In this document: in pieces, positions 81 to 36,973 of the stretch
How positions within the stretch are numbered: the stretch's first letter is position 1
Layout of the letters: the number at the start of each line of letters is the position of its first letter
Source of the DNA: Escherichia phage 121Q
Strand: one strand, 5' to 3'
Sequence record: NC_025447.1
Length of the DNA: 64,000 bases
Position numbers and translations under genes: made by a program
Notes under the pieces: generated by a model
What the model saw: only the letters and a program-made list of their open reading frames with translations
What the model was told of the DNA's origin: nothing
Database searches by the model: none

Positions 81-383
81 TTGACATTATCTATTGGTCG
101 TGATAAAATCATTTTAAGTAATTTGTCTGAAGAAGAATTCTTTCAAAGAAGTACTATTATCGATATGAAAGATTTCACATATGAATCATTGGTTGAACTC
201 AATACACGTTTTAACGATATTCAGGAACGATTGCGACCAATTCTTCGTATCGAAGAAGAAGCCTGGATTGAAAGTATTAGGAAGATGCAAGAAATGTTGA
301 AAGAAAATATTAACAATCTGGGTAAAGCTACAATGGAATTTGGTAAAACTTTTAAACTGAACTTTTCAAAGGATCGTAAATGA
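81..383 (+). CDS. hypothetical protein, EExFFQxST-motif family
   Basis: ORF track; product contains EEEFFQRSTI. Confidence 0.45.
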   Translation: MTLSIGRDKIILSNLSEEEFFQRSTIIDMKDFTYESLVELNTRFNDIQERLRPILRIEEEAWIESIRKMQEMLKENINNLGKATMEFGKTFKLNFSKDRK

Positions 384-835
384 AAATTGATAATTTGATT
401 CATGTTTTAGGATCTTTACATAAAATATTATCACATCTACATGAGATAAAGAAACTGGGATTTAACATCTCAAATTCAATTGAAACTACATTTAAATATC
501 AATCAATTACTGGTGATGGTTATTACATAATCGAATATACCTATGAAACCGATCCAGACTTCTATCCTCTTACGTTGAGAATTTATCCAACAAATCCGAG
601 AGGAATTCACGACATATCATCAATTTCACTTGATCCAGATGGTGAAACGAGTATTGAATACAATAATGATTCAAAACCAGAATTTTACATTGATGATATT
701 AAAATGATGTTCAACGATGAATATGTGTTCCAGCAAAGTACTGTGCATGATGTTGGAAGTACTAATGGACAATTTTGGAATACATGTTATTATCATATGA
801 TTGAAATTTGTAAATTACTAAAAGGCGATGATTAA
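380..835 (+). CDS. hypothetical protein, EExFFQxST-motif family
   Basis: ORF track; product contains DEYVFQQSTV; start overlaps upstream stop. Confidence 0.45.
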   Translation: MKIDNLIHVLGSLHKILSHLHEIKKLGFNISNSIETTFKYQSITGDGYYIIEYTYETDPDFYPLTLRIYPTNPRGIHDISSISLDPDGETSIEYNNDSKPEFYIDDIKMMFNDEYVFQQSTVHDVGSTNGQFWNTCYYHMIEICKLLKGDD

Positions 836-1218
836 TGAAATACAGCATTGAAGTACATTACACTACAGGGGACACTGAAAATTGTTATGACGTTCTTAAT
901 ACAATTGATATTCAATGGTCTTCTAAAGAGGAAGCAGTTGCTGCTTTACAGTGCCTAAAAGAGCATTGGGTGTTTTATATGAAGCAAGATAATTGCTATA
1001 CTAAAGAACACGAAACTATCGTTGAAAATGCTAAACAAAAAGAGTGGTTTGACCCAATATCACCAGAATATTCATTCTTGGTTAAAGTTGGCGATGTGAC
1101 AGTTCCATTACGAACACCGTGGAACGGCTACTTTGAAACTCTTCATAATGCACGAGTTGTCGCTGTTGATAATCCTGAGCAAATCGATTTCGATTCATTG
1201 GACTGGAAAAAACTATGA
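835..1218 (+). CDS. hypothetical protein
   Basis: ORF track; ATGA overlap with upstream gene. Confidence 0.45.
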   Translation: MKYSIEVHYTTGDTENCYDVLNTIDIQWSSKEEAVAALQCLKEHWVFYMKQDNCYTKEHETIVENAKQKEWFDPISPEYSFLVKVGDVTVPLRTPWNGYFETLHNARVVAVDNPEQIDFDSLDWKKL

Positions 1219-1658
1219 CAGTACTGCACCAATTGAAGAAGGTTAAGCATCCAGTTGTATACGAGGATTGGAAACGACAGAAATTGATGGGTGATTTTTA
1301 TTTCCCAAAATCTAAAGTTCTTGCGAATTCAAGATGTACATATGTCACACATAATTATAAAGATACAGTATTTGTTGAAATGGGTTTCAATCCATCAAAT
1401 ACAATGTTCAGTACTAACCAGACATTTTACAAATTTCATATCAATAAAGATTCATTTTCTATTATGATTATAAAATTTTTAGTTGAAGATCTGGTATACA
1501 GTGAAGAAAGAGTTCCTTTATCATTAGTGGATATTCCTTATGATAATTTAGAGGAAATGTACTTCCAACAGTTGACAGTGCAAGAAAACTTCGGTATGAT
1601 AGGACTTCAAGAGTTAGAGATGATTAAGCAAATTCGTGATATCTACTTTAAGGAGTAA
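1215..1658 (+). CDS. hypothetical protein, EExFFQxST-motif family
   Basis: ORF track; product contains EEMYFQQLTV. Confidence 0.45.
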   Translation: MTVLHQLKKVKHPVVYEDWKRQKLMGDFYFPKSKVLANSRCTYVTHNYKDTVFVEMGFNPSNTMFSTNQTFYKFHINKDSFSIMIIKFLVEDLVYSEERVPLSLVDIPYDNLEEMYFQQLTVQENFGMIGLQELEMIKQIRDIYFKE

Positions 1659-2191
1659 CTATGCCAGTACGTAACAGTACTTCACGCTTTACGCTTCAAC
1701 AGAAAGCAGATCTTTTGAATATGGCTAACAAAGATTCTAATTTTTACTATCTAGTACTCGGTGGGTCAGTAGAAAAGATTGACCTACGTGAGTGTATGAA
1801 ATAACAAAAGGGGACTAAAAATGAGTCTACGTGAATCATGGGAACAATTTAAAGAAGAGATTGGTTATCGTGGTGTTAAGATTGAAAAAATCAATCGAAC
1901 CGAAAGCATCAAAGCCAGTACTAATGGCACTACCTATGATCGTTATGATGAAAAGTATGGTTTGCATTCTAAACCGAAGGATACTGAATAATGGTATACA
2001 CTAACATTTTTACTGGTATTATGCGTAAATTTATTAATGGTACTGGATACGTATCTAATGACAACGGTAGTACATGGGTAAAAAATAATACGTCTGAATC
2101 TTTAGTAAAAAGTCTTCCGTATTATAAAGCTTGACACATGAAAATGGAGTATATATAATACTCCTATATTAATTAAACGAGGATATACGAA

Positions 2192-2764
2192 ATGGCTGGT
2201 GTTGATAAAATTTGTGAATTCAGTTCAGATTATGAAGGTTACGAGATGTACAAGTCCAAGCGTAATCACATTCAAGTACTGTCAAAGTACCGTAAAGAAT
2301 TCCGAGGCCACAAAGCAACATTGTATGTTTTTGAGAATGGATATTCTGAAGTTTTCACAAGTGGTGGGTACAGTACAGCTAACATGGCACATATCAACCC
2401 AAACCCAACTGAAGATGATTGGAATAGTGGTAACGCTTTTCGTATTTCAATTTTGAATAAAATGAATCGTTACGACCGTTATTGTACATTCTTTGAAAAT
2501 ATTTCAGAATACAAACAAGCATTAAAGAAATATAATCAACGCTTACTAATGAATTATGATTACATTCTTCATGTGCCAACTGTTCCAGGTCAGGTTAATG
2601 GTCTGTATACGAATAGTACACATGATTTAACTGCGGTGAAGCGTCGCCTCAAACGTATGTTGGGTTGTCGTAATTTAACAATCAAGGTTATGCGTAATGA
2701 ATCAATGTATAACTTTTTAGATGTACTACACTACACACTGAAGGATAATAATGGAAACGATTAA
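2192..2764 (+). CDS. hypothetical protein
   Basis: ORF track; preceded by TTGACA...TATATAAT promoter-like sequence near 2130-2160. Confidence 0.45.
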   Translation: MAGVDKICEFSSDYEGYEMYKSKRNHIQVLSKYRKEFRGHKATLYVFENGYSEVFTSGGYSTANMAHINPNPTEDDWNSGNAFRISILNKMNRYDRYCTFFENISEYKQALKKYNQRLLMNYDYILHVPTVPGQVNGLYTNSTHDLTAVKRRLKRMLGCRNLTIKVMRNESMYNFLDVLHYTLKDNNGND

Positions 2765-2944
2765 GTTTATGTTTGAGGTGTTTGTTGCATTCATCTTATG
2801 TGCTGTGTCTCTTACTATTGCTTTAATCCCAGTAATCGTTTACCAAGTTAATGGTGGGACAGATCCAACAATTGATATTTTACTTCGTTGTTTCGGCTTT
2901 TTTATATGGTTGGCGATGTTTATGTACTACATGCATCTTGAGGA

Positions 2945-3781
2945 TTGATTATGTCATTAGAAAAAATAATCATTTCTGAATTCCGAAAGTATATCATGGA
3001 TTGTGATAGAGATGTGCAGCGTAAGTTCAATGAGTACCTTGACAAATATCCGTATTTGATGTTTAATCCGTTTGAAACTGATGATGATTTATATCTTGGT
3101 TTTTACATAGGATTTACTCAACGAATTCTTCATAAAGATGAAATGAAACAATCTGAGATTTGGGTAGAAACTGACTCATCAGAGTCTAATGTTTTTTATC
3201 TTTATACATATTATGCCGAAATTGTTAGAGATACGACACCTGATGGTTGTCTATTTATACAATCGTCTGATATTGAAAGAATATATATCGAACCTGTATC
3301 TTTAGATATGGTTGCCCAGCTTCCAACTATCCAACAGTTAGGTGCAGACGAATTAACTTATTCTGTATTTGAATATCTAGGTAGAGATGATTTGACTCAA
3401 GAAATTGATAAAATGGTTTCTAAATATACTTCATCACTTATTTCAAATGGTAAACTTAAATTAGAATTAATTTTTGAAGATACTAGTATTAATCCAGTAA
3501 GAGGGGTAACAATTGGAAAAGTTACCATACGTGTTGTTTACGATAATGAAGTATTAGGATATATTTCAAAACGTGGACATGATTTATGTATAATTAGTAC
3601 ATTCGTTGTTTCTCGTAAAAAATGGAATGATTTAATGCAAAAAATCGTGGACGGTAGTAAAATTCGTGATATAATATGTAATGACATGGTAATTATTAAT
3701 CCTGATGTTGACTGTGATGTATATTTTCCAGTTCCTGGATTTACACGAGAAAACTTTAGTAAATTGAAGGATAAGAAATGA
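2945..3781 (+). CDS. hypothetical protein
   Basis: ORF track; 278 aa; co-directional tight packing. Confidence 0.5.
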   Translation: MIMSLEKIIISEFRKYIMDCDRDVQRKFNEYLDKYPYLMFNPFETDDDLYLGFYIGFTQRILHKDEMKQSEIWVETDSSESNVFYLYTYYAEIVRDTTPDGCLFIQSSDIERIYIEPVSLDMVAQLPTIQQLGADELTYSVFEYLGRDDLTQEIDKMVSKYTSSLISNGKLKLELIFEDTSINPVRGVTIGKVTIRVVYDNEVLGYISKRGHDLCIISTFVVSRKKWNDLMQKIVDGSKIRDIICNDMVIINPDVDCDVYFPVPGFTRENFSKLKDKK

Positions 3782-4068
3782 AAATTTTAGAAGTCTTGCT
3801 AGAAAAAGATGCATCTGGTACTCTTTATGTTGGTAATGAGTTCAGTCCAGATCCAATTGATATGTTACAGAGAATCCAAACACTGACTCAAAACATCTCG
3901 GTTAAAAAACCGTTTCAGAAAGAATTGGAAATCTTTTGTGATAAAGATATTGAACAGCATGATAATGTGATTTCAGATATTAAAAGTCTATTGACAAAAA
4001 ATGGTTATGTAGAGTATAATCCTCCTATCGTAATCGTTATTCCAGACTTCATGAAAGGAACAATTTAA
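3778..4068 (+). CDS. hypothetical protein
   Basis: ORF track; ATGA overlap with upstream gene. Confidence 0.4.
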   Translation: MKILEVLLEKDASGTLYVGNEFSPDPIDMLQRIQTLTQNISVKKPFQKELEIFCDKDIEQHDNVISDIKSLLTKNGYVEYNPPIVIVIPDFMKGTI

Positions 4069-4337
4069 TGACTAAAGAAGAAATGAAATCTCGCTTAAGC
4101 GAACTGAAGAAAGAACGTAAACTAGTACGTTTAGACTGGGATATCCTTAACAGGAAAGATGAGCAATCATATGCTAACTGGAGTTCTGATAAAGTACGAA
4201 ATGACCGTTCTAAAGAAGATGCAAAGCAATTCATGGCATTATCGAAGCGACTATCATCTTTGAACAGTGAAATTACTGGCCTTCAGAAAGAGATTATTTC
4301 CATTCTTAAAGCGGAGATTGAATCACTCTATGAATAA
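4068..4337 (+). CDS. hypothetical protein (Lys/Glu-rich, coiled-coil-like)
   Basis: ORF track. Confidence 0.4.
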   Translation: MTKEEMKSRLSELKKERKLVRLDWDILNRKDEQSYANWSSDKVRNDRSKEDAKQFMALSKRLSSLNSEITGLQKEIISILKAEIESLYE

Positions 4338-4626
4338 ACATGAAGTAATTCATTTTGATGATAAGATCTATATTCCAAATATTGATAGTACTGAAACATA
4401 TTACCTAATCAATAAGATTATGGCTGAAACAAATACGTGTTGTCGTCAACAGCCAGGAAAATATGAGTTCAGTCAGACTATTGGTTATTACCGATATGAT
4501 ATGTTAGAATCATTTACAATTGATAAGTCTAAAGTTATTGACATTCTTGTACAGAATGGATATAATGAACAACGTGTAAATAATACAGATTTACCAGTTT
4601 CAAAAATTGTTCTTTCTAATAATTAA
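4330..4626 (+). CDS. hypothetical protein
   Basis: ATG at 4330 (MNKHEV...) overlapping upstream stop; track ORF 4267-4626 trimmed to this start. Confidence 0.4.
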   Translation: MNKHEVIHFDDKIYIPNIDSTETYYLINKIMAETNTCCRQQPGKYEFSQTIGYYRYDMLESFTIDKSKVIDILVQNGYNEQRVNNTDLPVSKIVLSNN

Positions 4627-4629
4627 AAA

Positions 4630-4713
4630 TTGGACAAGAACAGATATTGTGATATAATGTTTGTTATCGGCAGATATTAAAATGCAAACCATTCCTCAAT
4701 GATGAGGGTTTTT
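4630..4713 (+). promoter_or_regulatory. sigma70-like promoter (TTGGACA / TGTGATATAAT) followed by leader stem-loop CCTCAatgaTGAGG + T-run
   Basis: -35/-10-like hexamers with extended TG; hairpin at 4694-4707 then GTTTTT; upstream of ORF 4742. Confidence 0.4.
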
Positions 4714-4741
4714 CATAAAAAAGAAATAAAAGGGTATTAAA

Positions 4742-4951
4742 ATGGCTAAAGAAACTAACGCACAAGTACTAGATATCACCGACTTCGACCGCACTGTGAA
4801 CTACATTCAATTCCAGATTCATCAAGCAGAAGAAGCTCTAGCAGTATTCCACGGTACTGGTGCAAGGCCAATCCGTTTTGCTCACTTGATTGCATGGAAG
4901 AAAAGTCTTCAAGAAGAACTATCTGAACTGCGTAAAGCAAATCGTAAGTAA
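4742..4951 (+). CDS. hypothetical protein
   Basis: ORF track; RBS-like AAAGGG upstream. Confidence 0.45.
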   Translation: MAKETNAQVLDITDFDRTVNYIQFQIHQAEEALAVFHGTGARPIRFAHLIAWKKSLQEELSELRKANRK

Positions 4952-5016
4952 TTTATCTTACCGCCTCATCATTTTTGATGGGGCATTTTAATCATATAAA
5001 GTAAGAGGATTTATAA

Positions 5017-5523
5017 ATGAGTGTTGAATATTGGTTTTTGTTTGTGTGTATTGGTACACTTGCATTAATCACCATTGGATTGATTTTCAATACCATGATT
5101 AGTGGAAGTAAGTACTTTAAGACATTCCAACTTTTAATGTCTGCTATGCCATATAGTGCTGATGCCGAAAAAACAATTTCTCTAATTTTAGATAAGTTCG
5201 ATGCAAATCTTTTGGTGGCTAAAATTTCAGCATGTGATACAAATATTTCATTTTACACTGTAGAGACAGAACAGAATGGGATTGATACACAATACTCAAA
5301 TCCAGTAGTTGCTGAAATTTTCATTGGTTCAAAATATTATGCCTATGGATATGTAAGAAAATATTATTCAGAAGCAAAAGCTGAGTTGACGAAGAAGCGA
5401 CCATCAATAAAAACTTTAAAACGCATCATTGCGTTGGAAAAATCACTTCGTGGTCAAACAAGCGTTAATGAGCCACCATCAGTGATTAAATCCAAAAAAA
5501 GTAATGTTGTGGAGTTGGAGTAA
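5017..5523 (+). CDS. hypothetical protein with N-terminal transmembrane helix
   Basis: ORF track; hydrophobic N-terminus FLFVCIGTLALITIGLIF. Confidence 0.45.
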   Translation: MSVEYWFLFVCIGTLALITIGLIFNTMISGSKYFKTFQLLMSAMPYSADAEKTISLILDKFDANLLVAKISACDTNISFYTVETEQNGIDTQYSNPVVAEIFIGSKYYAYGYVRKYYSEAKAELTKKRPSIKTLKRIIALEKSLRGQTSVNEPPSVIKSKKSNVVELE

Positions 5524-5813
5524 TGGAACCAGAAAAATCAAGAAAAATTCTTATTGATGTCCAAACTAAATTATTAGATATTATGGAAATCATCAATGAG
5601 TTACCACAGGGTTATCAGTACAAAGTTCGTGAAATGTTATCTTGTGCCGAAACCGTTGTTTCTATGTACGATGATATTCAACATGGTATTATCCCTGATA
5701 TTCTCAAAGATGACGTAAATATTAACACTGAGGTAAAAGAAACTAAATTAGAATCAGAAACAGTATCTAATAAAAAAGTTCTAGACCTTAGTGGTATAAA
5801 AATTAATATCTAA
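5523..5813 (+). CDS. hypothetical protein
   Basis: ORF track. Confidence 0.4.
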   Translation: MEPEKSRKILIDVQTKLLDIMEIINELPQGYQYKVREMLSCAETVVSMYDDIQHGIIPDILKDDVNINTEVKETKLESETVSNKKVLDLSGIKINI

Positions 5814-6001
5814 AAAACATCCAATAGGAGAAGTAATGAGTAATCAAAAAATCGACTTAGTAGTAAAACTTCAAGAGATTCAAGCACTAGCTAAAGACCT
5901 TGATAACACACGTGCATCAGTAGTTGATTCACTATGTGCAACAATCCTGACTGTTTTTACAGATTACGAAAAGAAATCTGATTAAACGTTACTTTGTAAA
6001 T

Positions 6002-6028
6002 ACCCAGTCAAGTACTGGGTATTTTTTT
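6002..6028 (+). terminator. rho-independent terminator-like hairpin
   Basis: ACCCAGTcaagtACTGGGT followed by ATTTTTTT. Confidence 0.5.
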
Positions 6029-6039
6029 AAGGAAATAAA

Positions 6040-6432
6040 ATGACTGAATCAGAACTACACGAAATGATAGATTTCATTTATGAAATGGTGCAAGATAAAA
6101 ATAACATCAATACAATTACTACTGGACCAAGACAAATTGGTAACCAAATGACCTATTCGTTGTCTTTATGGTTACACCCGAACTTCAAGGTTGATTGTTT
6201 GTATTTCCGTCCTGATATTGATGCTTATTATTTTGTAAATCATGATGCATTAATGAAACCAAATAAGCGTACAGTTGATGATACCTTTGTGACACACCCA
6301 TTTTACCTGGCTGATTCCGAAGAAGATGAGTTTCAAAAGAACACAACGTTAAACCTAGGTGAAATTTGCATCCCTCACGAACTTAAAGATAAAATGAATC
6401 ACATCACAGAAGTTATGAAAACATGCTTGTAA
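6040..6432 (+). CDS. hypothetical protein, EExFFQxST-motif family
   Basis: ORF track; product contains EEDEFQKNTT. Confidence 0.45.
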   Translation: MTESELHEMIDFIYEMVQDKNNINTITTGPRQIGNQMTYSLSLWLHPNFKVDCLYFRPDIDAYYFVNHDALMKPNKRTVDDTFVTHPFYLADSEEDEFQKNTTLNLGEICIPHELKDKMNHITEVMKTCL

Positions 6433-6480
6433 GTGCAATGAATCTCTAGTATAATACTATGACTTTTTTAAGGAGAACAT

Positions 6481-7050
6481 ATGAACTTTATTAAATTCAA
6501 CACATCTGAGTTAGAAGCATACTTTAATACAAATAATAAATTCAATATTATTCTTAAAGACGGAACAACTGTTATCGGAGTATCATTGCTTTCATTTGAT
6601 GGCGAAAAACTCAAAACTGTTTATAAATTCACCAATCTTGATGGTGATTACTGGGATACATCAGATGTATCTAAAATTTGTACACATTATGTATTTGAAT
6701 CAATTGAAGTTGGTGATGGATGGGCATTGACCTGTAATGGTAATAAAGTATTTTCTGGTAACATATTTGGGGTAATTTCAAGTAAAGAAATCGTAGACCA
6801 TCATCTTCATGTTCTCAATAATAACGCCAACACTTATACACCTGATAATATCAAAATTCACGATATTGTAACATATACTGATTATAATGGTTTCAGTCAT
6901 AAAGCAATCGTAACTGAAGTTAAAAAACCAAAAAATTATTTCGACCACGGTTTAATTGAAGTATATATGGTAGGTGGCGACACACAATACTTTGAACATT
7001 TCACTTATACTGGTTGGGATAGATTTCTAACCGTTATTGAGGAATACTAA
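6481..7050 (+). CDS. hypothetical protein
   Basis: ORF track; GGAGAA RBS-like upstream. Confidence 0.5.
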   Translation: MNFIKFNTSELEAYFNTNNKFNIILKDGTTVIGVSLLSFDGEKLKTVYKFTNLDGDYWDTSDVSKICTHYVFESIEVGDGWALTCNGNKVFSGNIFGVISSKEIVDHHLHVLNNNANTYTPDNIKIHDIVTYTDYNGFSHKAIVTEVKKPKNYFDHGLIEVYMVGGDTQYFEHFTYTGWDRFLTVIEEY

Positions 7051-7051
7051 C

Positions 7052-7540
7052 ATGCCTATTCGTGGTGTACCAGAGCCATTAAATGAAGTATTAAAATATG
7101 TTAATATTGAACTGCGAGATGTAAATCTTCGAAGAAATAATATATATTACTTTAAATCAACTGAAATGTGTTCAGTGCAAGTAATTATAGGTACATCTGT
7201 TAAGATAACTCGTGTACTTGATGGTAGTACAGATTTCGTCGAATACAACGTACTTACTAACAAAGTAACACACACATATAAATGGAGTGGGTATAAAACT
7301 ATTAAGTATGAGTTTGATGTTGCTAGAACTGAAGAAGAACGATTTATGTTAAGTACTATCAATCCAGCAAACTACCCTGAACTTGATACATTTTTGCTAA
7401 TTTTAAAACTGTATAATGAAGCAAATGGGAAAGCTAAGGAGTATGATAGAATTATGTATGAACGCAAAAAAGAACGTGCTCAGAAAAGTTATGATCTTTA
7501 TGATAACCCATATGTAAAATATAATAAGGGGAGAAAATGA
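7052..7540 (+). CDS. hypothetical protein
   Basis: ATG at 7052 directly after upstream stop (track starts at alternative codon 7037). Confidence 0.45.
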   Translation: MPIRGVPEPLNEVLKYVNIELRDVNLRRNNIYYFKSTEMCSVQVIIGTSVKITRVLDGSTDFVEYNVLTNKVTHTYKWSGYKTIKYEFDVARTEEERFMLSTINPANYPELDTFLLILKLYNEANGKAKEYDRIMYERKKERAQKSYDLYDNPYVKYNKGRK

Positions 7541-7941
7541 ATAACGAAGTTGAAATTATCATAACTCCACCTATACAAAGTCTTGATGTATCTATTAGTG
7601 ATTTTTTAGAAAAATATTATGAATGGTTTAATAATGATAATATCATTTATAATCATACATTACCAGATGGTTTCGTGGAGCTTATAGAATTAAATTCAAA
7701 ATCACTATACTTCTGTGTTGAATACAATGATTATATGACAGATGAAGCTTATCGTTTTCGTTGTACATTGTATCCGAATTATTTTTCAATAGGTTATAAA
7801 GACTACCAGTACTGCACCACTAACTACAGTGTAGAGGAAGAATTTCAGTACAATTTACTTTATCCAGATTTAGATTATACTATTGCAGTACTGTTATCTA
7901 AAATTATGGATTTTTATAAAGGTAAATACAGTGCAGCCTAA
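7537..7941 (+). CDS. hypothetical protein, EExFFQxST-motif family
   Basis: ORF track; product contains VEEEFQYNLL. Confidence 0.45.
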   Translation: MNNEVEIIITPPIQSLDVSISDFLEKYYEWFNNDNIIYNHTLPDGFVELIELNSKSLYFCVEYNDYMTDEAYRFRCTLYPNYFSIGYKDYQYCTTNYSVEEEFQYNLLYPDLDYTIAVLLSKIMDFYKGKYSAA

Positions 7942-8116
7942 AACATTTGACGAGTGGTATCAAATGCATTACAATATAAATGCAGGTGATGTATACTTCT
8001 TTAAGTTGGAGTTGTTTTTATTGTTAAATGATCCCGAATCGTACTATAACAATATCATTTATTGTGATGATTTTAGTACATATTTTAGTATTGCAGTTAT
8101 GGATATAAAAAGATGA
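7883..8116 (+). CDS. hypothetical small protein, possibly related to MTHEEW family (start uncertain)
   Basis: ORF track; contains TFDEWYQMHY resembling the MTHEEW N-termini; real start may be GTG near 7932. Confidence 0.3.
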   Translation: MQYCYLKLWIFIKVNTVQPKTFDEWYQMHYNINAGDVYFFKLELFLLLNDPESYYNNIIYCDDFSTYFSIAVMDIKR

Positions 8117-8477
8117 CACATGAAGAATGGTTGGTACAAACTGAACACTTGGTTATAGCAAGTATGAAATTTTGAAATGAACAGTTGATGCACTTGGTAA
8201 GTAATAAAGCGTATTACGATGCATTCTTTGGGAAAAATGCTACAATTGAGGTTCATGTGTATTATGCTATTACATTTGGTGATTAATTTATGAAATATGA
8301 ACATTTAAAATACTATGCTGATAGAATAAATTATTATCCCTTTTATATAAGATTAGATGCATTAATATCAAAAAAAGTTGTATATAAACGTTCTCAAGCT
8401 GATCTAACCAATATAGCATTCATTCTTGCAGTACTGTCTAAAATGGGATAATATTAAATTAAGATGGATATTAAGAG

Positions 8478-8654
8478 ATGACACATGAAGAATGGTTAGA
8501 TGAACTAAAATTCAAACATAATCCTTTTGGTTTTGGTATACGCCAAGGTCATTATGATGTGTTAAAAGATAAACAACTTTTCAAATCATTTGTACTTGAT
8601 GCGGATAGCAACCACTGGTTCATCTATGAGCTTGCAATTAGAGACAAAAAATAG
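8478..8654 (+). CDS. small protein, MTHEEW family
   Basis: ATG-initiated 58-codon ORF starting MTHEEWLDEL...; below the track size cut-off. Confidence 0.4.
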   Translation: MTHEEWLDELKFKHNPFGFGIRQGHYDVLKDKQLFKSFVLDADSNHWFIYELAIRDKK

Positions 8655-8659
8655 TAAGA

Positions 8660-8995
<336 letters not shown>

Positions 8996-8996
8996 A

Positions 8997-9179
8997 ATGA
9001 CACACGAAGAATGGATGTACAAACAGCATAAAGAACATGACTGCTTTGGGAATGGTATTCGTCAGGTACATTATGATATTCTCAAAGATATAAATTTATT
9101 CATAAAATATGTTTTGGATGAAAATAAACATTGGTTTATATATGAGATTGCATATAGAAACTCAAATAAACAAAAATAA
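8997..9179 (+). CDS. small protein, MTHEEW family
   Basis: Product MTHEEWMYKQ...; track ORF 8979-9179 trimmed to the family ATG. Confidence 0.4.
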   Translation: MTHEEWMYKQHKEHDCFGNGIRQVHYDILKDINLFIKYVLDENKHWFIYEIAYRNSNKQK

Positions 9180-9193
9180 ATAAGGAATATATT

Positions 9194-9412
9194 ATGGAAA
9201 CAACGTTATTTGAAGTTATTCAAGCATTAAAAACTGGTGATGACATTCAAGTATTGCTACATGGTTATCGTTTAAAAGGCACTGTGGTTTTAGTTAATGA
9301 CACAACGTTAGTTATTGCCGAAACAAATCCATATGATAGTAATCAAGTTGCTAATATCCATATTGATATTAAAAGCATTATTGGTGTAGGCGTAAATAAA
9401 AATCAAGAATAA
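9194..9412 (+). CDS. hypothetical protein
   Basis: ORF track; AAGGAA RBS-like upstream. Confidence 0.4.
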   Translation: METTLFEVIQALKTGDDIQVLLHGYRLKGTVVLVNDTTLVIAETNPYDSNQVANIHIDIKSIIGVGVNKNQE

Positions 9413-9490
9413 CAAATGTTTTTGAAAAAAACCAGAAAATGAATGATTTTTTTGGACAACTCAAAAATATATGATATAATAATTAGTACA

Positions 9491-9580
<90 letters not shown>

Positions 9581-9584
9581 ATAT

Positions 9585-9680
<96 letters not shown>

Positions 9681-9689
9681 CTAAAAACC

Positions 9690-9854
9690 ATGACGCATGA
9701 AGAATGGATGAATGATATTAATTTTAGATATTCGGGTATCGGTAGTTGGCGAAAATATCATTGGGAAATTATTTCAGACCCAGCAGAATACGATAAACTT
9801 ATAAACCATGAAGTATATCCGTGGTTCTTTATTGAAATAATGGTACGAATATGA
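9690..9854 (+). CDS. small protein, MTHEEW family
   Basis: 54-codon ORF MTHEEWMNDINFRYSGIGSW...; stop overlaps next ATG (ATGA). Confidence 0.45.
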   Translation: MTHEEWMNDINFRYSGIGSWRKYHWEIISDPAEYDKLINHEVYPWFFIEIMVRI

Positions 9855-10015: not shown

Positions 10016-10595
<580 letters not shown>

Positions 10596-10599
<4 letters not shown>

Positions 10600-10627: not shown

Positions 10628-10656
10628 TATGTTTAAAGATGAACGTCCAGATTTGT

Positions 10657-11056: not shown

Positions 11057-11809
<753 letters not shown>

Positions 11810-13980: not shown

Positions 13981-14421
<441 letters not shown>

Positions 14422-14429
<8 letters not shown>

Positions 14430-14787
14430 TCTAATAGTACGTATAATGCAAGATGTTTGTAATAACCTTTATACAGGCAATTTTGACGATCCGAACATAA
14501 AAATATTATGTTATGATGGTTTTACAATGGTACATCCAGCCTATTCAAATAATATCTACGTAGCATATACAGGTGAAAATCTATTGTATCAATTTGATAT
14601 ATATAGTACAATGACAAAGATAATTTTGGATGCATCTAAACCAGCAATCTTTATTGCTTCTCATGATTACCATTACACGGAAGAATCACTATTTCAGTAC
14701 TCAATGATTAATGACATTGGTGGGTTGACATTGGATGAGGTTAATGCTATACTAGCTGTCTCACGTTTGGTTAAAACCCACAATTAG
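14422..14787 (+). CDS. hypothetical protein, EExFFQxST-motif family
   Basis: ORF track; product contains EESLFQYSMINDIGGLT. Confidence 0.45.
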
Positions 14788-15496: not shown

Positions 15497-15925
15497 GTGA
15501 ATGCAATGAGTTATTTGTTTACTTTAATTGATAAGTATGTTGACATTGTATACCGTCAAGTTTGTAGTGATACGTTTGAAACAAAAAACCCAATTAGAGA
15601 TGGAATTTTTGATGTTGCCGTTGGATCATTTTTGAATGGGTACACCGAGTCATTATACAACAGTAATAATATTTTTATTTCAGTTCAATCAAGGCATACA
15701 TCAGACTATGCTGTTAGCATTGATATTTGGGAAAATAATATAGAAATAGACATAACGGAACATACTAACATTTGTGTTGATGATACATTTAATCAATTAA
15801 CTGAAGAAATGTACTTGCAGTTGAATTTTGTACATGATCTTACAAATATCAGTTATGATACATTAAGGAAAATATGTTTTCTTAGTGGGGTGATTCGTAG
15901 TAATATGAGTAAGTATGGGAAGTGA
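15497..15925 (+). CDS. hypothetical protein, EExFFQxST-motif family
   Basis: ORF track; product contains EEMYLQLNFVHDL. Confidence 0.45.
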   Translation: MNAMSYLFTLIDKYVDIVYRQVCSDTFETKNPIRDGIFDVAVGSFLNGYTESLYNSNNIFISVQSRHTSDYAVSIDIWENNIEIDITEHTNICVDDTFNQLTEEMYLQLNFVHDLTNISYDTLRKICFLSGVIRSNMSKYGK

Positions 15926-16343
15926 AATGTTAAAAATTCCACCTAAGTCGTTAACACATCTTATTGAATGTGGTGTAATATTTTCCGAAGGTGATACCTC
16001 ATCATACACATCGGTCGATGAACCTTATAATTTTTCATACCAATCTTATAAAAATAATTCTAAAATTTCTTGTAGAGAGGCTGAAAACATATTAATAGAT
16101 GTTTCGTTACATAATGTTCCGAAATTTTACATTGATATCTTTGGTGATTCTTTGACAATTCGAACATATGATTATTTTATTAACAAAGACCTCTTGAATC
16201 TTCCAATTGAACATGATAGTATAGATTCAGAACTTTTCTTTCAACTATCAACTGTTTATGATTTACAGGGTTTAACTGTTGAACAGTTGAATGGTATTTT
16301 TGAGATTTCACGAAACATACGAAGCAGGAACACAAATGTCTAA
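15915..16343 (+). CDS. hypothetical protein, EExFFQxST-motif family
   Basis: ORF track; product contains SELFFQLSTVYDLQGLT. Confidence 0.45.
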   Translation: MGSEMLKIPPKSLTHLIECGVIFSEGDTSSYTSVDEPYNFSYQSYKNNSKISCREAENILIDVSLHNVPKFYIDIFGDSLTIRTYDYFINKDLLNLPIEHDSIDSELFFQLSTVYDLQGLTVEQLNGIFEISRNIRSRNTNV

Positions 16344-16746
16344 TATTTTAAATGAAAAAACAGTTGATGTTGCTATTGGCGTTCTTAACACCGCAACTTC
16401 ATTTCAGAAGAAACACAGTGTTGTATACTTTGGTGAAGATTGTTGGCTGAACTATACTAATAATTCGTTTATAATTCGTGTAGAGGCTGATGATATTGGA
16501 TTAACCGTTCAGGTAGGATATACCAAAACTGGTAAACAAATCACTGTCATTGTCGATAAACTTACGTCTTCTTTTTATGATAGTATAAATGATTGTGAAC
16601 ACTATAGTTCAACATTTTATGATACCGAAGAAGAACATTTTATGGATAGTACTGTTAAAGAGTTAGCTATTCCATATAATCTAATGAAAGCCGTGAGTGA
16701 TTTAATTTTAAAATATAAAAAAATAGGAGTTACTAATGCAATTTAA
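16336..16746 (+). CDS. hypothetical protein, EExFFQxST-motif family
   Basis: ATG at 16336 (MSNILNEK...) overlapping upstream stop; product contains EEEHFMDSTV. Confidence 0.45.
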   Translation: MSNILNEKTVDVAIGVLNTATSFQKKHSVVYFGEDCWLNYTNNSFIIRVEADDIGLTVQVGYTKTGKQITVIVDKLTSSFYDSINDCEHYSSTFYDTEEEHFMDSTVKELAIPYNLMKAVSDLILKYKKIGVTNAI

Positions 16747-27319: not shown

Positions 27320-28108
27320 ATGAGCACTATCGATGAACTGATTCAACGGAATTCAAAATATTACCAACCATCAGAAATTGTGGATAACATTACTAAATCT
27401 GAGTTTGGACCGAACACACGCAAACTCATTCATGTAATGTCACGTGATGGCTTTAAATGTGATTGTTGTGGTGAATCAAATGTAGTATTCACTTTACACA
27501 AGCACAGTACTAAAGAACGTTATAAATTCAGACCTTATGTACTTAAAGGGAAACGCCTTGTACGCATGACGTTAGACCATAATGTACTGGACTGTCTTCA
27601 GGGCGGTAATGATAAAGAGAACATGACTGCATTGTGTGAAGATTGTAACGCATTACGCCAGCATAAGTTTGCTGAGTACAGTGAGTTTAAACACTGGTAT
27701 CATAACGCGGATCGTTCAATCGAGCCTGACGTTAACTACTGCTTCATTGAGTACATTAAGAATGCCAAAGATACATACATTCTTAAATCAATGTCACCTA
27801 TTACCGTGTTTCCTGAGAACCTATTCACTACATTAAAGAATAGTTTTATTGTCGGTGATATTGATGCATTCAAGTATTTTGACAAAGGTGCAAAACATTT
27901 TGAAATTCAATGTCTTAGTACTGCACTATGTAAACTCATTAAAATTTACATAAAAGAGTATTTGGGTATTGACAATGTACGTGTACCAGAGTATACTTTT
28001 TCTATTGAATTCGATTGTGAATCAATTAAAGAGTTTGGAATTCTTTTCAATAAACAAATAGAACTTGCAATTCAAAACGAAATCAAGTACTATACTACTA
28101 ACATTTAA
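27320..28108 (+). CDS. HNH endonuclease (putative homing endonuclease)
   Basis: CDCCG ... TLDHNVLDCLQGGNDKENMTALCEDCNALRQHK matches the HNH catalytic motif. Confidence 0.7.
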   Translation: MSTIDELIQRNSKYYQPSEIVDNITKSEFGPNTRKLIHVMSRDGFKCDCCGESNVVFTLHKHSTKERYKFRPYVLKGKRLVRMTLDHNVLDCLQGGNDKENMTALCEDCNALRQHKFAEYSEFKHWYHNADRSIEPDVNYCFIEYIKNAKDTYILKSMSPITVFPENLFTTLKNSFIVGDIDAFKYFDKGAKHFEIQCLSTALCKLIKIYIKEYLGIDNVRVPEYTFSIEFDCESIKEFGILFNKQIELAIQNEIKYYTTNI

Positions 28109-28123
28109 TCAGAGGAAATTATC

Positions 28124-28306
28124 ATGCAAATTATCATTCTTATCGTTGGCATCATGCTGGGTGTTTACGGTCACTCCTGGATGAACGAGAAGTTTCCTAA
28201 TACGCGTCCTGAGTATTGCAGTACTAATGTATTCCAGAATGGTGAGAAACCAAAGGAAAGTATTGGTAAAAAGCTGGACAAAGTACTTGATGTGATCAAT
28301 GAATAA
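28124..28306 (+). CDS. small membrane protein
   Basis: ORF track; hydrophobic N-terminus. Confidence 0.35.
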   Translation: MQIIILIVGIMLGVYGHSWMNEKFPNTRPEYCSTNVFQNGEKPKESIGKKLDKVLDVINE

Positions 28307-28517
28307 GGGCCATAAAATGTTTAAACCGAATTCCAATGTTGGAAAGAAAGTTCAATTACTTGAGGATGTATCCACTCTGAGTGGAATTTTCCCAAGAGGT
28401 CACATCATGACTATTATTGCCGAAACATCCCGTGGTTGGGACTTGGAAGATGCTGATGGTAATCGCATCCTTGAAGCTGGCTTCTATGGTCATCGTGAAT
28501 ATAAAATTATCGATTAA
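28299..28517 (+). CDS. hypothetical protein
   Basis: ORF track. Confidence 0.4.
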   Translation: MNKGHKMFKPNSNVGKKVQLLEDVSTLSGIFPRGHIMTIIAETSRGWDLEDADGNRILEAGFYGHREYKIID

Positions 28518-30647: not shown

Positions 30648-30848
30648 ATGTTTACTTTATATCTTGCAGTAGTACTAACTAATGGTGAAATCACTCGCAC
30701 CGTTGGTGAAGGTGTATATAAAACACCTGATCAGTGTTACTCTGCAACTCATTGGCCTCGTGATGCTGGTGATGAAACTCGCACTGAATACAAATGTATG
30801 AAGGTTAAAGGTGACTTTGTAAATCTAAAGGTTATTGAGACTAAGTAA
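30648..30848 (+). CDS. hypothetical protein with N-terminal hydrophobic segment
   Basis: ORF track. Confidence 0.4.
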   Translation: MFTLYLAVVLTNGEITRTVGEGVYKTPDQCYSATHWPRDAGDETRTEYKCMKVKGDFVNLKVIETK

Positions 30849-31366
30849 TGGATATTAATGAGTTGTTGAAATTAGTGTTTAATCGTGAACGCCGCGATAC
30901 AAGACCAATTGAATATCAAGATGTGATACGCATTGAAACTGATTTCTGTTATGGTAAAACAACTCATGATCTTTTGAATCTCTCTGGAAAACGCTATGCT
31001 GATGTTTGTTTTTCAGAGAGAAGTGATGGTTCAGAAATAACAAGTACTGATATTGTTTGTTACGCACGCAGTGCTGATAAATCTTATGAAATAGAACTTA
31101 TATATTCCCCTAGTTCTAAAACAAATCATCACCGCCATATTTTATATGATGTTTACACACCACCTGGTATTGCTGAATATTTTGTTATTGATTATAGTAC
31201 TGAAGAAAATGTGTTTCAACAAAGTTTGATTCATAACTTTGAGGTGAATGATCCATTAGTACCAAAGTTGTTCAAACTACTTGACACCATCGATGTTGAC
31301 TTTGAATTTGTTATGTGCATTAGAACTTCTTTATTCAATGAATTCATGGAACTTTTTAATATATGA
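30848..31366 (+). CDS. hypothetical protein, EExFFQxST-motif family
   Basis: ORF track; product contains EENVFQQSLI. Confidence 0.45.
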   Translation: MDINELLKLVFNRERRDTRPIEYQDVIRIETDFCYGKTTHDLLNLSGKRYADVCFSERSDGSEITSTDIVCYARSADKSYEIELIYSPSSKTNHHRHILYDVYTPPGIAEYFVIDYSTEENVFQQSLIHNFEVNDPLVPKLFKLLDTIDVDFEFVMCIRTSLFNEFMELFNI

Positions 31367-32998: not shown

Positions 32999-33325
32999 AT
33001 GCTATCAGTACTAATTTCAATTCCGTCTTTAATTCTGATTTGGCTTCTGGTTTACGAATGCTTTATTACTGATGATAATGATAAAAAAGAGTTCTCTGAG
33101 TTGTTTATGCTTGATTCACCGATTGTGCGTATTTTCTATACAGTCGTTGTGGTTTCAGTAATTGTATGGGTTTTGAGTTTTATCTTCCCACTCGGTGCAG
33201 TAGTTAAAACTTTGGATTTAGTTGAGAACTTTGTTGCAATTATGTGGCTAATCAAAGCACTATTTGCAGGAAATGTTAAAATTTGGATTGATATTATCAA
33301 ATTCAAGTTCACGAATAAGATGTAA
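32999..33325 (+). CDS. small membrane protein
   Basis: ORF track. Confidence 0.4.
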   Translation: MLSVLISIPSLILIWLLVYECFITDDNDKKEFSELFMLDSPIVRIFYTVVVVSVIVWVLSFIFPLGAVVKTLDLVENFVAIMWLIKALFAGNVKIWIDIIKFKFTNKM

Positions 33326-33403: not shown

Positions 33404-33763
33404 ATGAAGAGTTATATAAAATTAATAGCACTTGTGTGTGCATTATTTTCATGTTTTAGTTATGGTGCAGCAGCAGAAACATATTGTCGTAGTACTAAGG
33501 GAACGTGGCATGTATTGACTAACGACCCTAGAAATGGTAAAAATATAGTTGTTGATGGTGTGATTTATCGTTTTAAAGTAGAAAGTATTATCGGTAATAA
33601 AAAAATCTCGACTTATAGAGATGATTCTGGTACATTAGCAAACGTAATATTAATTGTAGACCCAAGAACTGGTAATGGTGATATCTATATAGTAATTTAC
33701 TTGGACTCATCGGTACGCCGTGACCTAGATATAGATAAATTGAACTTACACTGTGAAATATAG
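33404..33763 (+). CDS. hypothetical secreted protein (signal peptide)
   Basis: N-terminus MKSYIKLIALVCALFSCFSYGAAA. Confidence 0.45.
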   Translation: MKSYIKLIALVCALFSCFSYGAAAETYCRSTKGTWHVLTNDPRNGKNIVVDGVIYRFKVESIIGNKKISTYRDDSGTLANVILIVDPRTGNGDIYIVIYLDSSVRRDLDIDKLNLHCEI

Positions 33764-33774: not shown

Positions 33775-34152
33775 ATGGTAAACACTATTTTACTTTTGTT
33801 GTTGAATATTCCAATTATTCTGTCTTTTTTAATTTCTATTTTTATGGCAGGATATTGTTTAGTTGCAGTAATTCATTTCATTTTAACAAACAAATATGTC
33901 CTAATTTCTAAGCTTGATTCTATTTTTGCTTGCGATTCGATTGCTTATAACTTGTGGTTAATTTGTTCTTGCATTATGGGAGTAACTTTCCTTCTGCATG
34001 TATTTGATGTCCTTGACCAAAAGTTCGTATACATCAGTACTGGATTGGCTCTTTATCCTGCTACGTGGTACTTGATTTACGTTGGTGATATATGGTATAG
34101 TACTTATAAAGAATATCAGTACAAGAAATCACTTAACGTTGGAGGAAAATAA
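33775..34152 (+). CDS. hypothetical membrane protein
   Basis: ORF track; polytopic hydrophobicity. Confidence 0.4.
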   Translation: MVNTILLLLLNIPIILSFLISIFMAGYCLVAVIHFILTNKYVLISKLDSIFACDSIAYNLWLICSCIMGVTFLLHVFDVLDQKFVYISTGLALYPATWYLIYVGDIWYSTYKEYQYKKSLNVGGK

Positions 34153-34154: not shown

Positions 34155-34505
34155 ATGAAAATTATTTTATTTTTTGTATGTATGTTAATGTGTGGATTGT
34201 CATATGCTGAACCATTGGAAGGTTTAGTTTGTACAGATGGTAATATTAAACATATCTATCAAGGTGATAGTGACGATAGAGATATTGTATATATTGATGG
34301 ACAATCATATACGTTTGTTAAAGAGCATACAGTAGGCGACATTAGCTTCACTGAGTTTTCTAACGACACAGACCCTAACTTCTTAGCGTTTATTGAAGTA
34401 GATGTATATGAAGATAGTAATGGTACACAATATGCTAAATTAGTTATGATGCGTCGTGGTGCTAAAGAAACTAGTTTTGGTGGCTTGTGTAAATATAAGG
34501 ATTGA
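34155..34505 (+). CDS. hypothetical secreted protein (signal peptide)
   Basis: N-terminus MKIILFFVCMLMCGLSYAEP. Confidence 0.45.
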   Translation: MKIILFFVCMLMCGLSYAEPLEGLVCTDGNIKHIYQGDSDDRDIVYIDGQSYTFVKEHTVGDISFTEFSNDTDPNFLAFIEVDVYEDSNGTQYAKLVMMRRGAKETSFGGLCKYKD

Positions 34506-35547: not shown

Positions 35548-35814
35548 ATGAAGCTTAAATTACAATATAATGGATTTACTTTACGTAATGATACTGAATT
35601 TATTAATCGTTCTCCTGGTGCTGAACTGTTTTTACGAGAGATGAACATTCCTTTCATCATTACTACAGTGGGCGACCGTGAAGTTCTACAATACGCAGAG
35701 CATCCGATCATTGATGTTCCTTGGTACTCTGAGCATATGTACATGGATATGGCACGTCGCTACAACTGTAAGTTCGTAGTTGAAGGTGATAAAATTACAG
35801 TCGAATTTAAATAA
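35548..35814 (+). CDS. hypothetical protein
   Basis: ORF track. Confidence 0.4.
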   Translation: MKLKLQYNGFTLRNDTEFINRSPGAELFLREMNIPFIITTVGDREVLQYAEHPIIDVPWYSEHMYMDMARRYNCKFVVEGDKITVEFK

Positions 35815-35825
35815 GGTAAATTAAA

Positions 35826-36119
35826 ATGATCAGTACTTCAGTTAATGAAAGCATCGTCGCTGACGTAGAAATGGTTAAAGAATGTGCAGATGAAACTCTT
35901 CGTGATATGTACATTAATGATTTAATTACTGAATACGGTAGTCGTGGTGTACACGAATTTATTCGTTTAAGTGGAGAGTTGATGAAAAATCGAATTCGTA
36001 TGAAGCTTAACGTACATCCAAAAGCATGGGCATTTACATTAAAATACGCAGAAGATATTGTGAATTTGCGTCGAACTGAAGTATATGAACGTTTACACAA
36101 TGGTATGTTAGATAAATGA
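35826..36119 (+). CDS. hypothetical protein
   Basis: ORF track. Confidence 0.4.
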   Translation: MISTSVNESIVADVEMVKECADETLRDMYINDLITEYGSRGVHEFIRLSGELMKNRIRMKLNVHPKAWAFTLKYAEDIVNLRRTEVYERLHNGMLDK

Positions 36120-36171
36120 TTGTAAAATAGGAATTCTTAAATGAATTCCTTTTTGTTTATAAGGTATAGTA

Positions 36172-36393
36172 ATGAAATATATAGTACTTGTACTGATATT
36201 ATTCAGTACTGTTGTAAGTGCTAAACAAAAAGAATATGTTAAATGTATAAATTACGAAGAGAAATATGTTGAAACATATAAAAAAAGTATAATTAAAAAC
36301 GTTTCTATTACTGACCGAGGAACAATCATTGTACTTAAAAATGGGTTAATTATGTTATATAAACCACACGTTAAATGTGAAATTATTAATTGA
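36172..36393 (+). CDS. hypothetical secreted protein (signal peptide)
   Basis: N-terminus MKYIVLVLILFSTVVSA. Confidence 0.4.
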   Translation: MKYIVLVLILFSTVVSAKQKEYVKCINYEEKYVETYKKSIIKNVSITDRGTIIVLKNGLIMLYKPHVKCEIIN

Positions 36394-36400
36394 GGAAATT

Positions 36401-36973
36401 ATGAATCGTAAAGGTCGTTTTAAAGTATCAAAAAAGAACAAAAGTTCTAGGTTTAAACCTATTGTTTTAACAGTTAAATCTAACAAAGATTTAACTGCAC
36501 TTAGTAAAAAGATAATTTCATCTAAGATTGAAGTATCATACGTAAATTCATTAAAATATATGAATGTCAAACCACTGGACCAACTCATTTCACTTATATT
36601 TGAACGTAATGATTTTGAGATATCAGTAGATGATTATAGAGCCTATAATGCTGGTTTCATTAATGTTACTTGTAATAAAAAACTAACTGAGTTGGAAAAT
36701 TTGTCATGTATAATAAATCTAGATAAAGGTGTTGTGAAGTACCATTTTGTACATTTCACTAATATCAATAATGGAATGGGTGTACAATCCAGACCTATAG
36801 TGCCTACGTGTGATGTTACTAAATTAGCAAAGCTCAATGATGAAGAATATTTTCAAGAAAGCATTGTAACTGAGCATTTAGATGATATAATAGCTACTTA
36901 CAAAGAATGCATATGGGTGTTGAATGCTATAAAACCTAAATTGTGTTTAATGAATATTGTTCGTGATTTATGA
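36401..36973 (+). CDS. hypothetical protein, EExFFQxST-motif family
   Basis: ATG at 36401 after GAGGAAA; product contains DEEYFQESIV. Confidence 0.45.
   Translation: MNRKGRFKVSKKNKSSRFKPIVLTVKSNKDLTALSKKIISSKIEVSYVNSLKYMNVKPLDQLISLIFERNDFEISVDDYRAYNAGFINVTCNKKLTELENLSCIINLDKGVVKYHFVHFTNINNGMGVQSRPIVPTCDVTKLAKLNDEEYFQESIVTEHLDDIIATYKECIWVLNAIKPKLCLMNIVRDL

Follow-up and report, generated by a model that had tools for sequence, protein, structure and literature searches.

Why should a phage carry many small, divergent proteins that agree in a single short motif, and what does that motif do? The question is raised by a stretch of 64,000 nucleotides from Escherichia phage 121Q (NC_025447.1), analysed here at its full length and hereafter called the window. 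A first-pass annotation, made from the sequence alone, had listed 14 such proteins between positions 81 and 36973, and had suggested that the motif is an interaction peptide shared by diversified protein bodies. We find that the family is genuine and larger than first noted: the window holds 16 members, one of them weak, and a scan of the whole genome of the related phage JP4 detected 65. The motif is predicted to be the core helix of a new fold shared, at the least, by the members arrayed in the window. All coordinates are window positions unless another genome is named, and all members in the window and in JP4 lie on the plus strand.

The source of the DNA is a jumbo phage of the PBECO4/121Q/JP4-like group, genus Asteriusvirus, with a genome of ~350 kb. 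In a megablast search, bases 1-20000 of the window were 93-96% identical to the Asteriusvirus E. coli jumbo phages JP4, PBECO4, UB, CRJP21 and phAPEC6, and base 1 corresponds approximately to position 49,756 of the JP4 record PQ330092.1. The G+C content of the window is 32-37%. From base 1 to ~53 kb it is densely filled with small plus-strand open reading frames (ORFs), and nearly all the genes under the megablast match are annotated "hypothetical protein".

The family is real and extends beyond the window

All 14 of the ORFs listed in the first-pass annotation exist among the window's ORF translations, and each contains the motif as it had been quoted. Most of the start positions given there also held; the exceptions were the ORF placed at 81, which is open from base 3, the one placed at 16336, which is an internal ATG, and the one placed at 15497, where the start is a GTG. 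The count of 14 was too low, as a clear member at 7037/7052..7540 (motif TEEERFMLSTI) and a weak one at 52446..53108 had been overlooked.

The association of these proteins does not depend on the eye that first grouped them. A loose regular expression for the motif matched 14 ORFs, while shuffling the residues of the window's 593 ORFs 500 times gave 0.21 +/- 0.43 matches (maximum 2); the expression was written post hoc on the known family, so the significance derived from the shuffles is generous. Leave-one-out hidden Markov models (HMMs), run against a database of the real ORFs and ten shuffled copies, regained 12 of 15 members at E values of 1e-7 to 0.16, a range that also contained one decoy. 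An HMM built from the window's 15 members alone detected 7 additional motif-bearing genes in JP4, immediately upstream of the position that corresponds to the window (E 3e-4 to 3e-6), and ~14 further members in 17.6 kb of sequence from a diverged metagenomic relative. These matches are independent of the family's original definition.

Next, the JP4 genome was put together from eight pieces and a profile was iterated over it. At E <= 1e-3 the scan collected 65 ORFs, all on the plus strand, while an equal number of shuffled decoys yielded no match in any round. The 65 members represent ~9% of the 745 annotated coding sequences of JP4. Twenty of them form array A, the array sampled by the window, at 43.8-66.7 kb of JP4, with outliers at 80.8 and 86.4 kb. 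A second, contiguous array of ~40 members (array B) lies outside the window at 169-198 kb, and the profile scan placed three further members at 248-265 kb. The span of 81-36973 originally assigned to the family was thus too narrow, since the family extends both upstream of the window and into the second array of ~40 genes.

The family is a lineage-specific expansion in RaK2-like jumbo phages

How far the family could be followed depended on the query. An exhaustive profile search of 1.84 billion representative proteins yielded no more than 24 matches; where the sources are named, they are Asteriusvirus phages or records of E. coli, and another match was traced to the diverged metagenomic relative. 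A word-indexed homolog search gained almost nothing besides orthologs, and tblastn with a single member reached only Asteriusvirus; other genera came within range only with a consensus peptide. With the consensus of the motif region as the query, tblastn identified 70 phage records, mostly with 3-7 sites each. Apart from one match at chance level, to a 67-kb Nocardia phage (E 7), all were phages of enterobacteria or Xanthomonas, and almost all of their genomes exceed 300 kb. The phages included Klebsiella RaK2 and K64-1, Cronobacter GAP32, Salmonella Munch and 7t3, Pectobacterium CBB, Yersinia fHe-Yen9-04, Serratia BF, Erwinia phages and Xanthomonas XbC2.

By HMM scan, 40 kb of RaK2 contains at least 12 members, an equal length of GAP32 at least 8 and 24 kb of XbC2 ~6, and the motif is intact in members from these phages, for example TEEEFFQQSTIHDF and SEESFFQQSTVHDY. 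Recurrence in related phages is therefore extensive and covers several RaK2-like genera. Of the two outcomes that the first-pass annotation had named as refuting its observation, a motif no better than shuffled controls and a lack of recurrence, neither occurred. In GAP32, a 211-residue protein encoded at 27836-28471 (+) of the examined locus has two matches to the family profile, at residues 9-74 and 109-184, an apparent internal tandem duplication of the domain.

The family shows the tandem same-strand arrays of paralogs, the restriction to one lineage and the variable complement of a viral lineage-specific multigene family. Approximately 10% of RaK2 proteins have been reported to be paralogues of each other, with no families described and no role assigned (PMC3622015). 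We found no description of the family in the literature on RaK2, CBB, Sharanji and UE-S1 or in jumbo-phage reviews. In PHROGs its members are spread over at least 33 separate groups, all of function unknown (e.g. phrog_17453, 24941, 24510, 23322 and 21500). Viral multigene families as such are already known; what is new is a nameless family, with no Pfam or NCBIfam model, split among dozens of clusters labelled "hypothetical".

The motif is predicted to be a helix within a compact domain

Members are small (~115-190 amino acids), mostly acidic domains with the signature T-E-E-x-(F/Y)-F-Q-x-S-(T/L)-(V/I)-x-D. The motif lies internally, 32-93 residues from the C-terminus. The 121-residue protein encoded at 14422-14787 was modelled with AlphaFold2 (AF2), using as input an 80-sequence non-redundant alignment of the family (A2). 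The model had a predicted local distance difference test score (pLDDT) of 90.8 and a predicted template modelling score (pTM) of 0.84; a model from an earlier 15-sequence alignment, with a pLDDT of 56, was discarded. The predicted fold of this member comprises an N-terminal helix (residues 4-15), a five-stranded antiparallel sheet (26-32, 44-51, 54-61, 64-68 and 76-79) and two C-terminal helices (87-96 and 104-114).

In this model the motif, T86-E87-E88-x-(F/Y)90-F91-Q92-x-S94-(T/L)95-(V/I)96-x-D98, constitutes helix 2 together with its N-cap and the turn to helix 3, and helix 3 itself opens with a second T-x-(E/D) cap. A T-E-E start matches the helix N-cap and helix-dipole pattern. The pLDDT across the block is 87-95 and residues 87-96 are helical in a compact domain, which is not the disordered or terminal, exposed state of a short linear motif.

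Conservation outside the motif tells the same story. Other conserved columns of A2 are L5, L8, F/Y21, Y31, I45, I47, Y56, I65 and I110, and tyrosine is favoured over phenylalanine at position 31 (57 Y and 18 F among 80 sequences) and at position 56 (50 Y and 12 F). The conserved strand positions are spaced i, i+2, as for one face of a sheet packed beneath helices, while at the N-termini conservation is limited to a hydrophobic helix pattern. Since these core positions are conserved together with the motif, the bodies of the window's array are homologous and share one fold. For this array, the idea of a free interaction peptide on unrelated bodies is accordingly not supported, while the idea of many paralogs marked by one motif stood: the family is true, its motif is outstandingly conserved and the rest of the proteins is 11-30% identical. 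Several members have a degenerate motif, such as EEFQYNLL or YLQLNFV.

On a helical wheel of the motif helix, only positions 89, 93 and 97 vary, and these form one narrow stripe. Variation restricted to this stripe suggests that the helix is largely enclosed, in the simplest reading on three sides. For the array in the window at least, the motif is thus predicted to be the core helix of a new fold common to the members.

No homolog of known function was detected

Sequence searches of Pfam, NCBIfam, PADLOC and the PDB gave no match above chance. No Pfam family was common to the 80 members scanned, and in PADLOC the same number of members produced two single chance-level matches and no known anti-phage defence profile. 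Foldseek against the PDB returned nothing below E 0.1, and a structure search of BFVD returned family members only, plus weak uncharacterised matches in CBB, RaK2 and Yersinia phages. Neither a profile match nor a fold match linked the family to SUKH / SMI1-KNR4 immunity proteins.

Several superficial similarities were rejected. PDB entry 3ihk ("LTEENYFQK") is a chance motif match (E 0.011). A TEV or 3C-type protease site (ENLYFQ/S) was dismissed because the residue after Q is variable and bulky in this family, and a TonB box, a beta-clamp-binding motif and a C-terminal PDZ ligand were dismissed on the form or position of the motif.

Three known systems nevertheless invite comparison. MAM33/p32 (gC1qBP) forms a homotrimeric doughnut with an acidic face. 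It resembles the modelled member in the order of its elements (N-terminal helix, consecutive antiparallel strands, two C-terminal helices) and the family and in its strong acidity (the median isoelectric point, pI, of the family is 4.7), and 1p32 appeared in the Foldseek list, in which no entry fell below E 0.1. It differs in having seven sheet strands, compared with five main strands in the family, and no member matched the Pfam model MAM33 (PF02330).

The multigene families MGF110/360/505 of African swine fever virus (ASFV), and the Bcl-2-like and ankyrin/PRANC families of poxviruses, have demonstrated immune-evasion or host-range roles. Like the phage family, they consist of dozens of divergent paralogs in same-strand tandem arrays, their copy content differs between related viruses, and they occupy non-structural, early-type regions. 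They have no sequence or fold relation to the phage family, however, which sits in a tailed phage, makes up ~9% of the annotated genes and is defined by one internal helix motif, with a putative function. The early "monkey-wrench" proteins of phages and the acidic inhibitors that mimic DNA (T7 Ocr, T4 Arn and ArdA) share general properties with the family, being small, acidic, early (predicted for the family), non-virion and fast-evolving, but they show no sequence or structural similarity to it and are single-copy, compared with ~65 members. Among phages, the ~35-copy expansion of a zinc ribbon in Bacillus phage G (PMC7824862) belongs with the multigene families in this comparison and likewise has no sequence or fold relation to the family.

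Members lie in an early-type region and evolve faster than their neighbours

In window positions 1-40000, sigma-70 sites matching at least 11 of the 12 consensus bases number 28 on the plus strand and 1 on the minus strand, compared with an expectation of 2.3 +/- 1.5 per strand under a first-order Markov model. Several sites are perfect (12/12); examples are at 2131-2159, 3991-4020, 4538-4566, 20464-20491 and 22310-22338. Three sites, at 10187-10214, 14349-14377 and 15428-15457, are located 30-50 bp upstream of the members at 10246, 14422 and 15506. Over the whole JP4 genome the plus and minus strands have 128 and 16 such sites, which are densest at 40-100 and 120-200 kb and so cover both arrays. 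The syntenic region of CBB has short hypothetical ORFs, a phage sigma factor and a concentration of RpoD-like promoters, and has been proposed to be an early host-takeover region (PMC5259590). The window encodes the counterpart of the CBB factor, a phage sigma-70-family protein with Pfam regions 2, 3 and 4, at 25267-26232 (+). For the gene at 40809-41483 (+), the JP4 ortholog carries the annotation T7 gp0.7-like protein kinase; the window's own copy has no Pfam match.

Family proteins are set apart from their surroundings by acidity and by rate of change. Their median pI of 4.7 compares with 6.45 for the other plus-strand ORFs of at least 100 amino acids. In comparisons with JP4 orthologs, members were less similar than neighbouring genes in amino acid identity (0.90 versus 0.99) and had higher nonsynonymous divergence (dN, 0.049 versus 0.004), synonymous divergence (dS, 0.285 versus 0.037) and dN/dS (0.26 versus 0.09). 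A dN/dS of 0.26 indicates that the family genes are under purifying selection and not in decay, and the raised dS suggests that family alleles have been replaced by recombination. Gene content also turns over: for 5 of the 14 window members, the 40 kb of syntenic sequence compared from JNE01, a more distant Asteriusvirus, contains no ortholog. Among orthologs of the modelled protein, variation is greatest in the beta4-beta5 hairpin and directly ahead of the motif, which itself hardly varies.

No annotation as a virion protein is attached to any of the 12 members identified in RaK2 or to the JP4 members in the regions examined; this evidence is annotation-based and indirect, and the annotation of RaK2 drew on tandem mass spectrometry (MS/MS) of virions (PMC3622015).

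What the family may do

The early-type promoters, the acidic non-virion proteins, and the faster evolution and gene turnover fit host takeover or counter-defence. From this context we infer a takeover or anti-defence function, which the first-pass annotation had inferred from the number of paralogs and their motif, and our preferred explanation, to which we give roughly even chances, is that the family consists of diversified early binders of host or defence components. The host sigma-70 RNA polymerase would transcribe the family genes early and the proteins would remain in the cytoplasm, where each paralog would bind a different host or defence component through its fast-diverging sheet and hairpin surface. 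The conserved helix would hold the common scaffold together and might add a shared site. Jointly, the paralogs would form a diversified arsenal for takeover or counter-defence, like the multigene families of large eukaryotic DNA viruses.

Several observations weigh against this explanation. No member has a homolog of known function in Pfam, NCBIfam, PADLOC, the PDB or PHROGs, and the members are only putative binders of host factors. Acidity, an early location and rapid evolution also characterise many unrelated accessory genes of phages. Burial of the motif is deduced from periodicity and not from coordinates. Residues E87, E88, Q92, S94 and D98 are present in 83-89% of members (D98 in fewer), above most core positions, where I, L and V interchange. 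That polar residues of the motif outdo the hydrophobic core points beyond scaffolding, towards a shared site. Finally, when the profile of array A (A2) was compared with that of array B (A3) by hhalign, the two aligned with a probability of 95.8% and an E value of 7e-9 over only 26 columns, which correspond to the motif region. Proteins of array B retain the motif, the N-terminal helix pattern and, as in array A, a tyrosine located 31 residues ahead of the two glutamates. They diverge from array A in a longer C-terminal part, the motif being followed by a median of 57 residues compared with 39. The motif may therefore provide a shared functional site or docking surface.

The last two observations are also what favours the main rival, in which the helix-turn surface ties all paralogs to one partner while the variable remainder picks the targets, the proteins acting as adaptors or carrying a shared degron. 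This is a refined form of the interaction-peptide idea and overlaps with the binder explanation. Candidate partners are a host hub or a machine of the phage, for example its own proteases of the Lon, HslV or ClpP type; the proteases encoded by JP4 include an ATP-dependent one and an HslV-family peptidase. We consider hub docking doubtful, since the motif is predicted as an ordered helix of a compact domain and not as a disordered linear motif, variation at the 89/93/97 stripe alone suggests that the remainder of the helix is packed, and every partner named is a candidate. Another rival is a purely structural signature: the motif would be the folding nucleus of a fast-evolving scaffold, the roles of the members would be unrelated or largely dispensable, and tandem duplication would simply be tolerated in a roomy genome. 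The helical periodicity, the co-conserved core aromatics and the T-E-E cap agree with it, as does the unassigned tenth of paralogous proteins in RaK2 (PMC3622015). However, every ortholog pair tested was under purifying selection, the expansion has been kept in several phage genera, and strong dedicated promoters lie upstream of members; we take a purely structural signature to be quite unlikely. The invariant polar residues can instead be read as a small-molecule, metal-binding or catalytic pocket, built from Glu-Glu, Gln, Ser/Thr and Asp with the two tyrosines of the sheet, in which case the paralogs would be enzymes or ligand sponges with different surfaces. The preference for tyrosine over phenylalanine at positions 31 and 56 accompanies those residues, and the structure searches offered no neighbour that contradicts a pocket. 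We judge a pocket decidedly unlikely: Pfam, NCBIfam, PADLOC and the PDB gave no similarity to an enzyme or sponge family, it would be unusual for one genome to encode a single activity ~65 times, and the motif is degenerate in several members.

Two further alternatives fare worse. The T4 internal proteins and the inner-body paralogs of phiKZ are precedents for small, diversified proteins with a common short signal, and the motif might by analogy be a capsid-targeting or processing signal of packaged and ejected proteins. Beyond this precedent the evidence runs the other way: the signature is internal and helical and not an N-terminal leader of the prohead-protease type, the genes belong to an early-promoter region and not to a structural module, and no member in the RaK2 or JP4 regions examined is annotated as virion-associated, despite the MS/MS of RaK2 virions. 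Packaging is thus highly improbable. A DNA or RNA element within the coding sequence, or gene conversion, can be practically discounted as the cause of the conservation. Synonymous codons are mixed at every conserved residue of the motif, with 30 AGY and 18 TCN codons for serine, 26 TTC and 33 TTT for phenylalanine, and 28 CAG and 31 CAA for glutamine. Such mixing, which includes switches between the two serine codon families, shows that selection acts on the protein; it refutes a nucleic-acid element and means that gene conversion is not the cause.

Binding of diverse targets and a shared site might also be combined. In its boldest form, which we regard as unlikely, ~65 early proteins share a new fold in which the invariant helix is a docking site or degron for one hub, such as a central host machine or the phage's own Lon, HslV or ClpP-type proteases, or a ligand pocket, and the hypervariable surfaces of hairpin and sheet each capture a different host or defence protein. 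If that were true, the phage would encode an arsenal of adaptors diversified in a combinatorial way, for which no counterpart has been described in bacteriophages. Takeover proteins of phages would then, if the helix acts as a common docking or catalytic module, follow a new organising principle.

The family also matters by its size. RaK2-like jumbo phages devote roughly a tenth of their coding capacity to one unnamed domain, and these phages are therapeutic candidates, much of whose host-manipulation or counter-defence repertoire is probably marked by the arrays. Recognition of one family with a diagnostic motif reduces much jumbo-phage "dark matter" to a single problem that can be tackled. 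The motif gives an experimental handle, through motif mutants, array deletions and pull-downs, and the family merits experiments for its scale, its invariant motif and the absence of relatives.

Members in the window

The E values below are from the family HMM built from alignment A2, except where a leave-one-out value is named, and all coordinates are on the plus strand. The first member, at 3..383 (motif SEEEFFQRSTIID, E 9e-12), has its N-terminus beyond the start of the window, where the frame is open from base 3; its full-length JP4 ortholog has 171 residues, and its stretch from motif to C-terminus is unusually long at 84 residues. It is followed by members of 151 residues at 380..835 (NDEYVFQQSTVHD, E 1e-18; phrog_21500, function unknown), 147 residues at 1215..1658 (LEEMYFQQLTVQE, E 2e-20) and 130 residues at 6040..6432 (SEEDEFQKNTTLN, E 3.5e-9). 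The clear member missed at first, at 7052..7540, has 162 residues from its ATG, with a TTG at 7037 as a possible start, and a basic C-terminal extension (TEEERFMLSTINP, E 1e-12). The adjoining gene at 7537..7941 encodes 134 residues with a degenerate motif (SVEEEFQYNLLYP, E 2.4e-5) and was not recovered in the leave-one-out HMM test.

Next come a 117-residue protein at 10246..10599 (TEEEYFQMSTVQE, E 4e-14) and a 123-residue protein at 11057..11428 (DEEDEFQKRTVYE, E 2e-11). The 147-residue member at 13986..14429 (TEEKFFQYCLLND, E 2e-24, leave-one-out E 9e-6) contains an acidic DEDEDGDGDGDD insert, and overlaps the 121-residue modelled protein at 14422..14787 (TEESLFQYSMIND, leave-one-out E 1e-7, AF2 pLDDT 90.8). 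Three more follow closely: 139 residues from an ATG at 15506..15925 (TEEMYLQLNFVHD, E 4e-22), with the GTG at 15497; 142 residues at 15915..16343 (DSELFFQLSTVYD, E 8e-18); and 151 residues at 16291..16746 (TEEEHFMDSTVKE, E 3e-13), for which the JP4 annotation uses the long start.

Outlying members encode 172 residues at 30848..31366 (TEENVFQQSLIHN, E 1e-16) and, with a basic N-terminal extension, 190 residues from the ATG at 36401..36973 (NDEEYFQESIVTE, E 2e-14). The weak gene at 52446..53108 is probably the sixteenth member. It encodes 220 residues with the motif SSDLMFQYSLIHK (SDLMFQYSLI), scores E 0.009 compared with 0.26 for the best decoy, and has a basic N-terminal extension like that of the gene at 36401; its JP4 ortholog scores E 0.003.

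Neighbouring genes and other observations

A second paralog set lies among the family genes of the window: five tandem plus-strand proteins of 54-66 residues at 8478-8654, 8979-9179, 9690-9854, 9851-10015 and 10012-10176, with MTHEEWM at or near the start and a W/F-rich pattern. The one protein of this set scanned against Pfam had no match. Six tRNA genes, also on the plus strand, are interspersed with the family at 8682-8754, 9491-9580, 11464-11555, 11563-11637, 11728-11802 and 13896-13969; that at 11464-11555 is called as tRNA-Ser with the anticodon ACT, which is unusual. Neighbouring gene pairs that appear to be small paralog sets occur at 33404-33763 and 34155-34505 (+), at 22831-23253 and 23250-23675, and at 32999-33325 and 33775-34152. 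Two of the proteins are signal-peptide-like, and two of the pairs encode multi-pass membrane proteins.

Family arrays in other phages have recurrent companions. In the metagenomic relative, genes for an ADP-ribosylglycohydrolase, a PTH2-type peptidyl-tRNA hydrolase and a DNA methyltransferase (786-1727, 7610-8020 and 12841-13698) lie within or beside the arrays. The RaK2 locus has a PTH2-type peptidyl-tRNA hydrolase and a DNA methyltransferase gene in such positions (21608-22021 and 24063-24956) and no ADP-ribosylglycohydrolase there, and the first array of JP4 also holds a methyltransferase gene. Elsewhere in JP4 (PQ330092.1), the annotation of ~123.7-143.8 kb recurs at 143.8-163 kb, with, for example, the DksA-like zinc-finger and acetyltransferase genes appearing twice; this repeat of ~20 kb suggests an internal direct duplication or the assembly of a terminal repeat.

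At ~52 kb of the window, where the coding strand switches, the GC skew flips its sign. Beyond this point, at 53089-63797 on the minus strand, lies an array of at least nine large genes encoding 251-433 residues. The two scanned have RCC1-like repeats (Pfam RCC1_2 / RCC1-like domain), and the JP4 annotation contains ~14 genes of this RCC1-like-repeat type.

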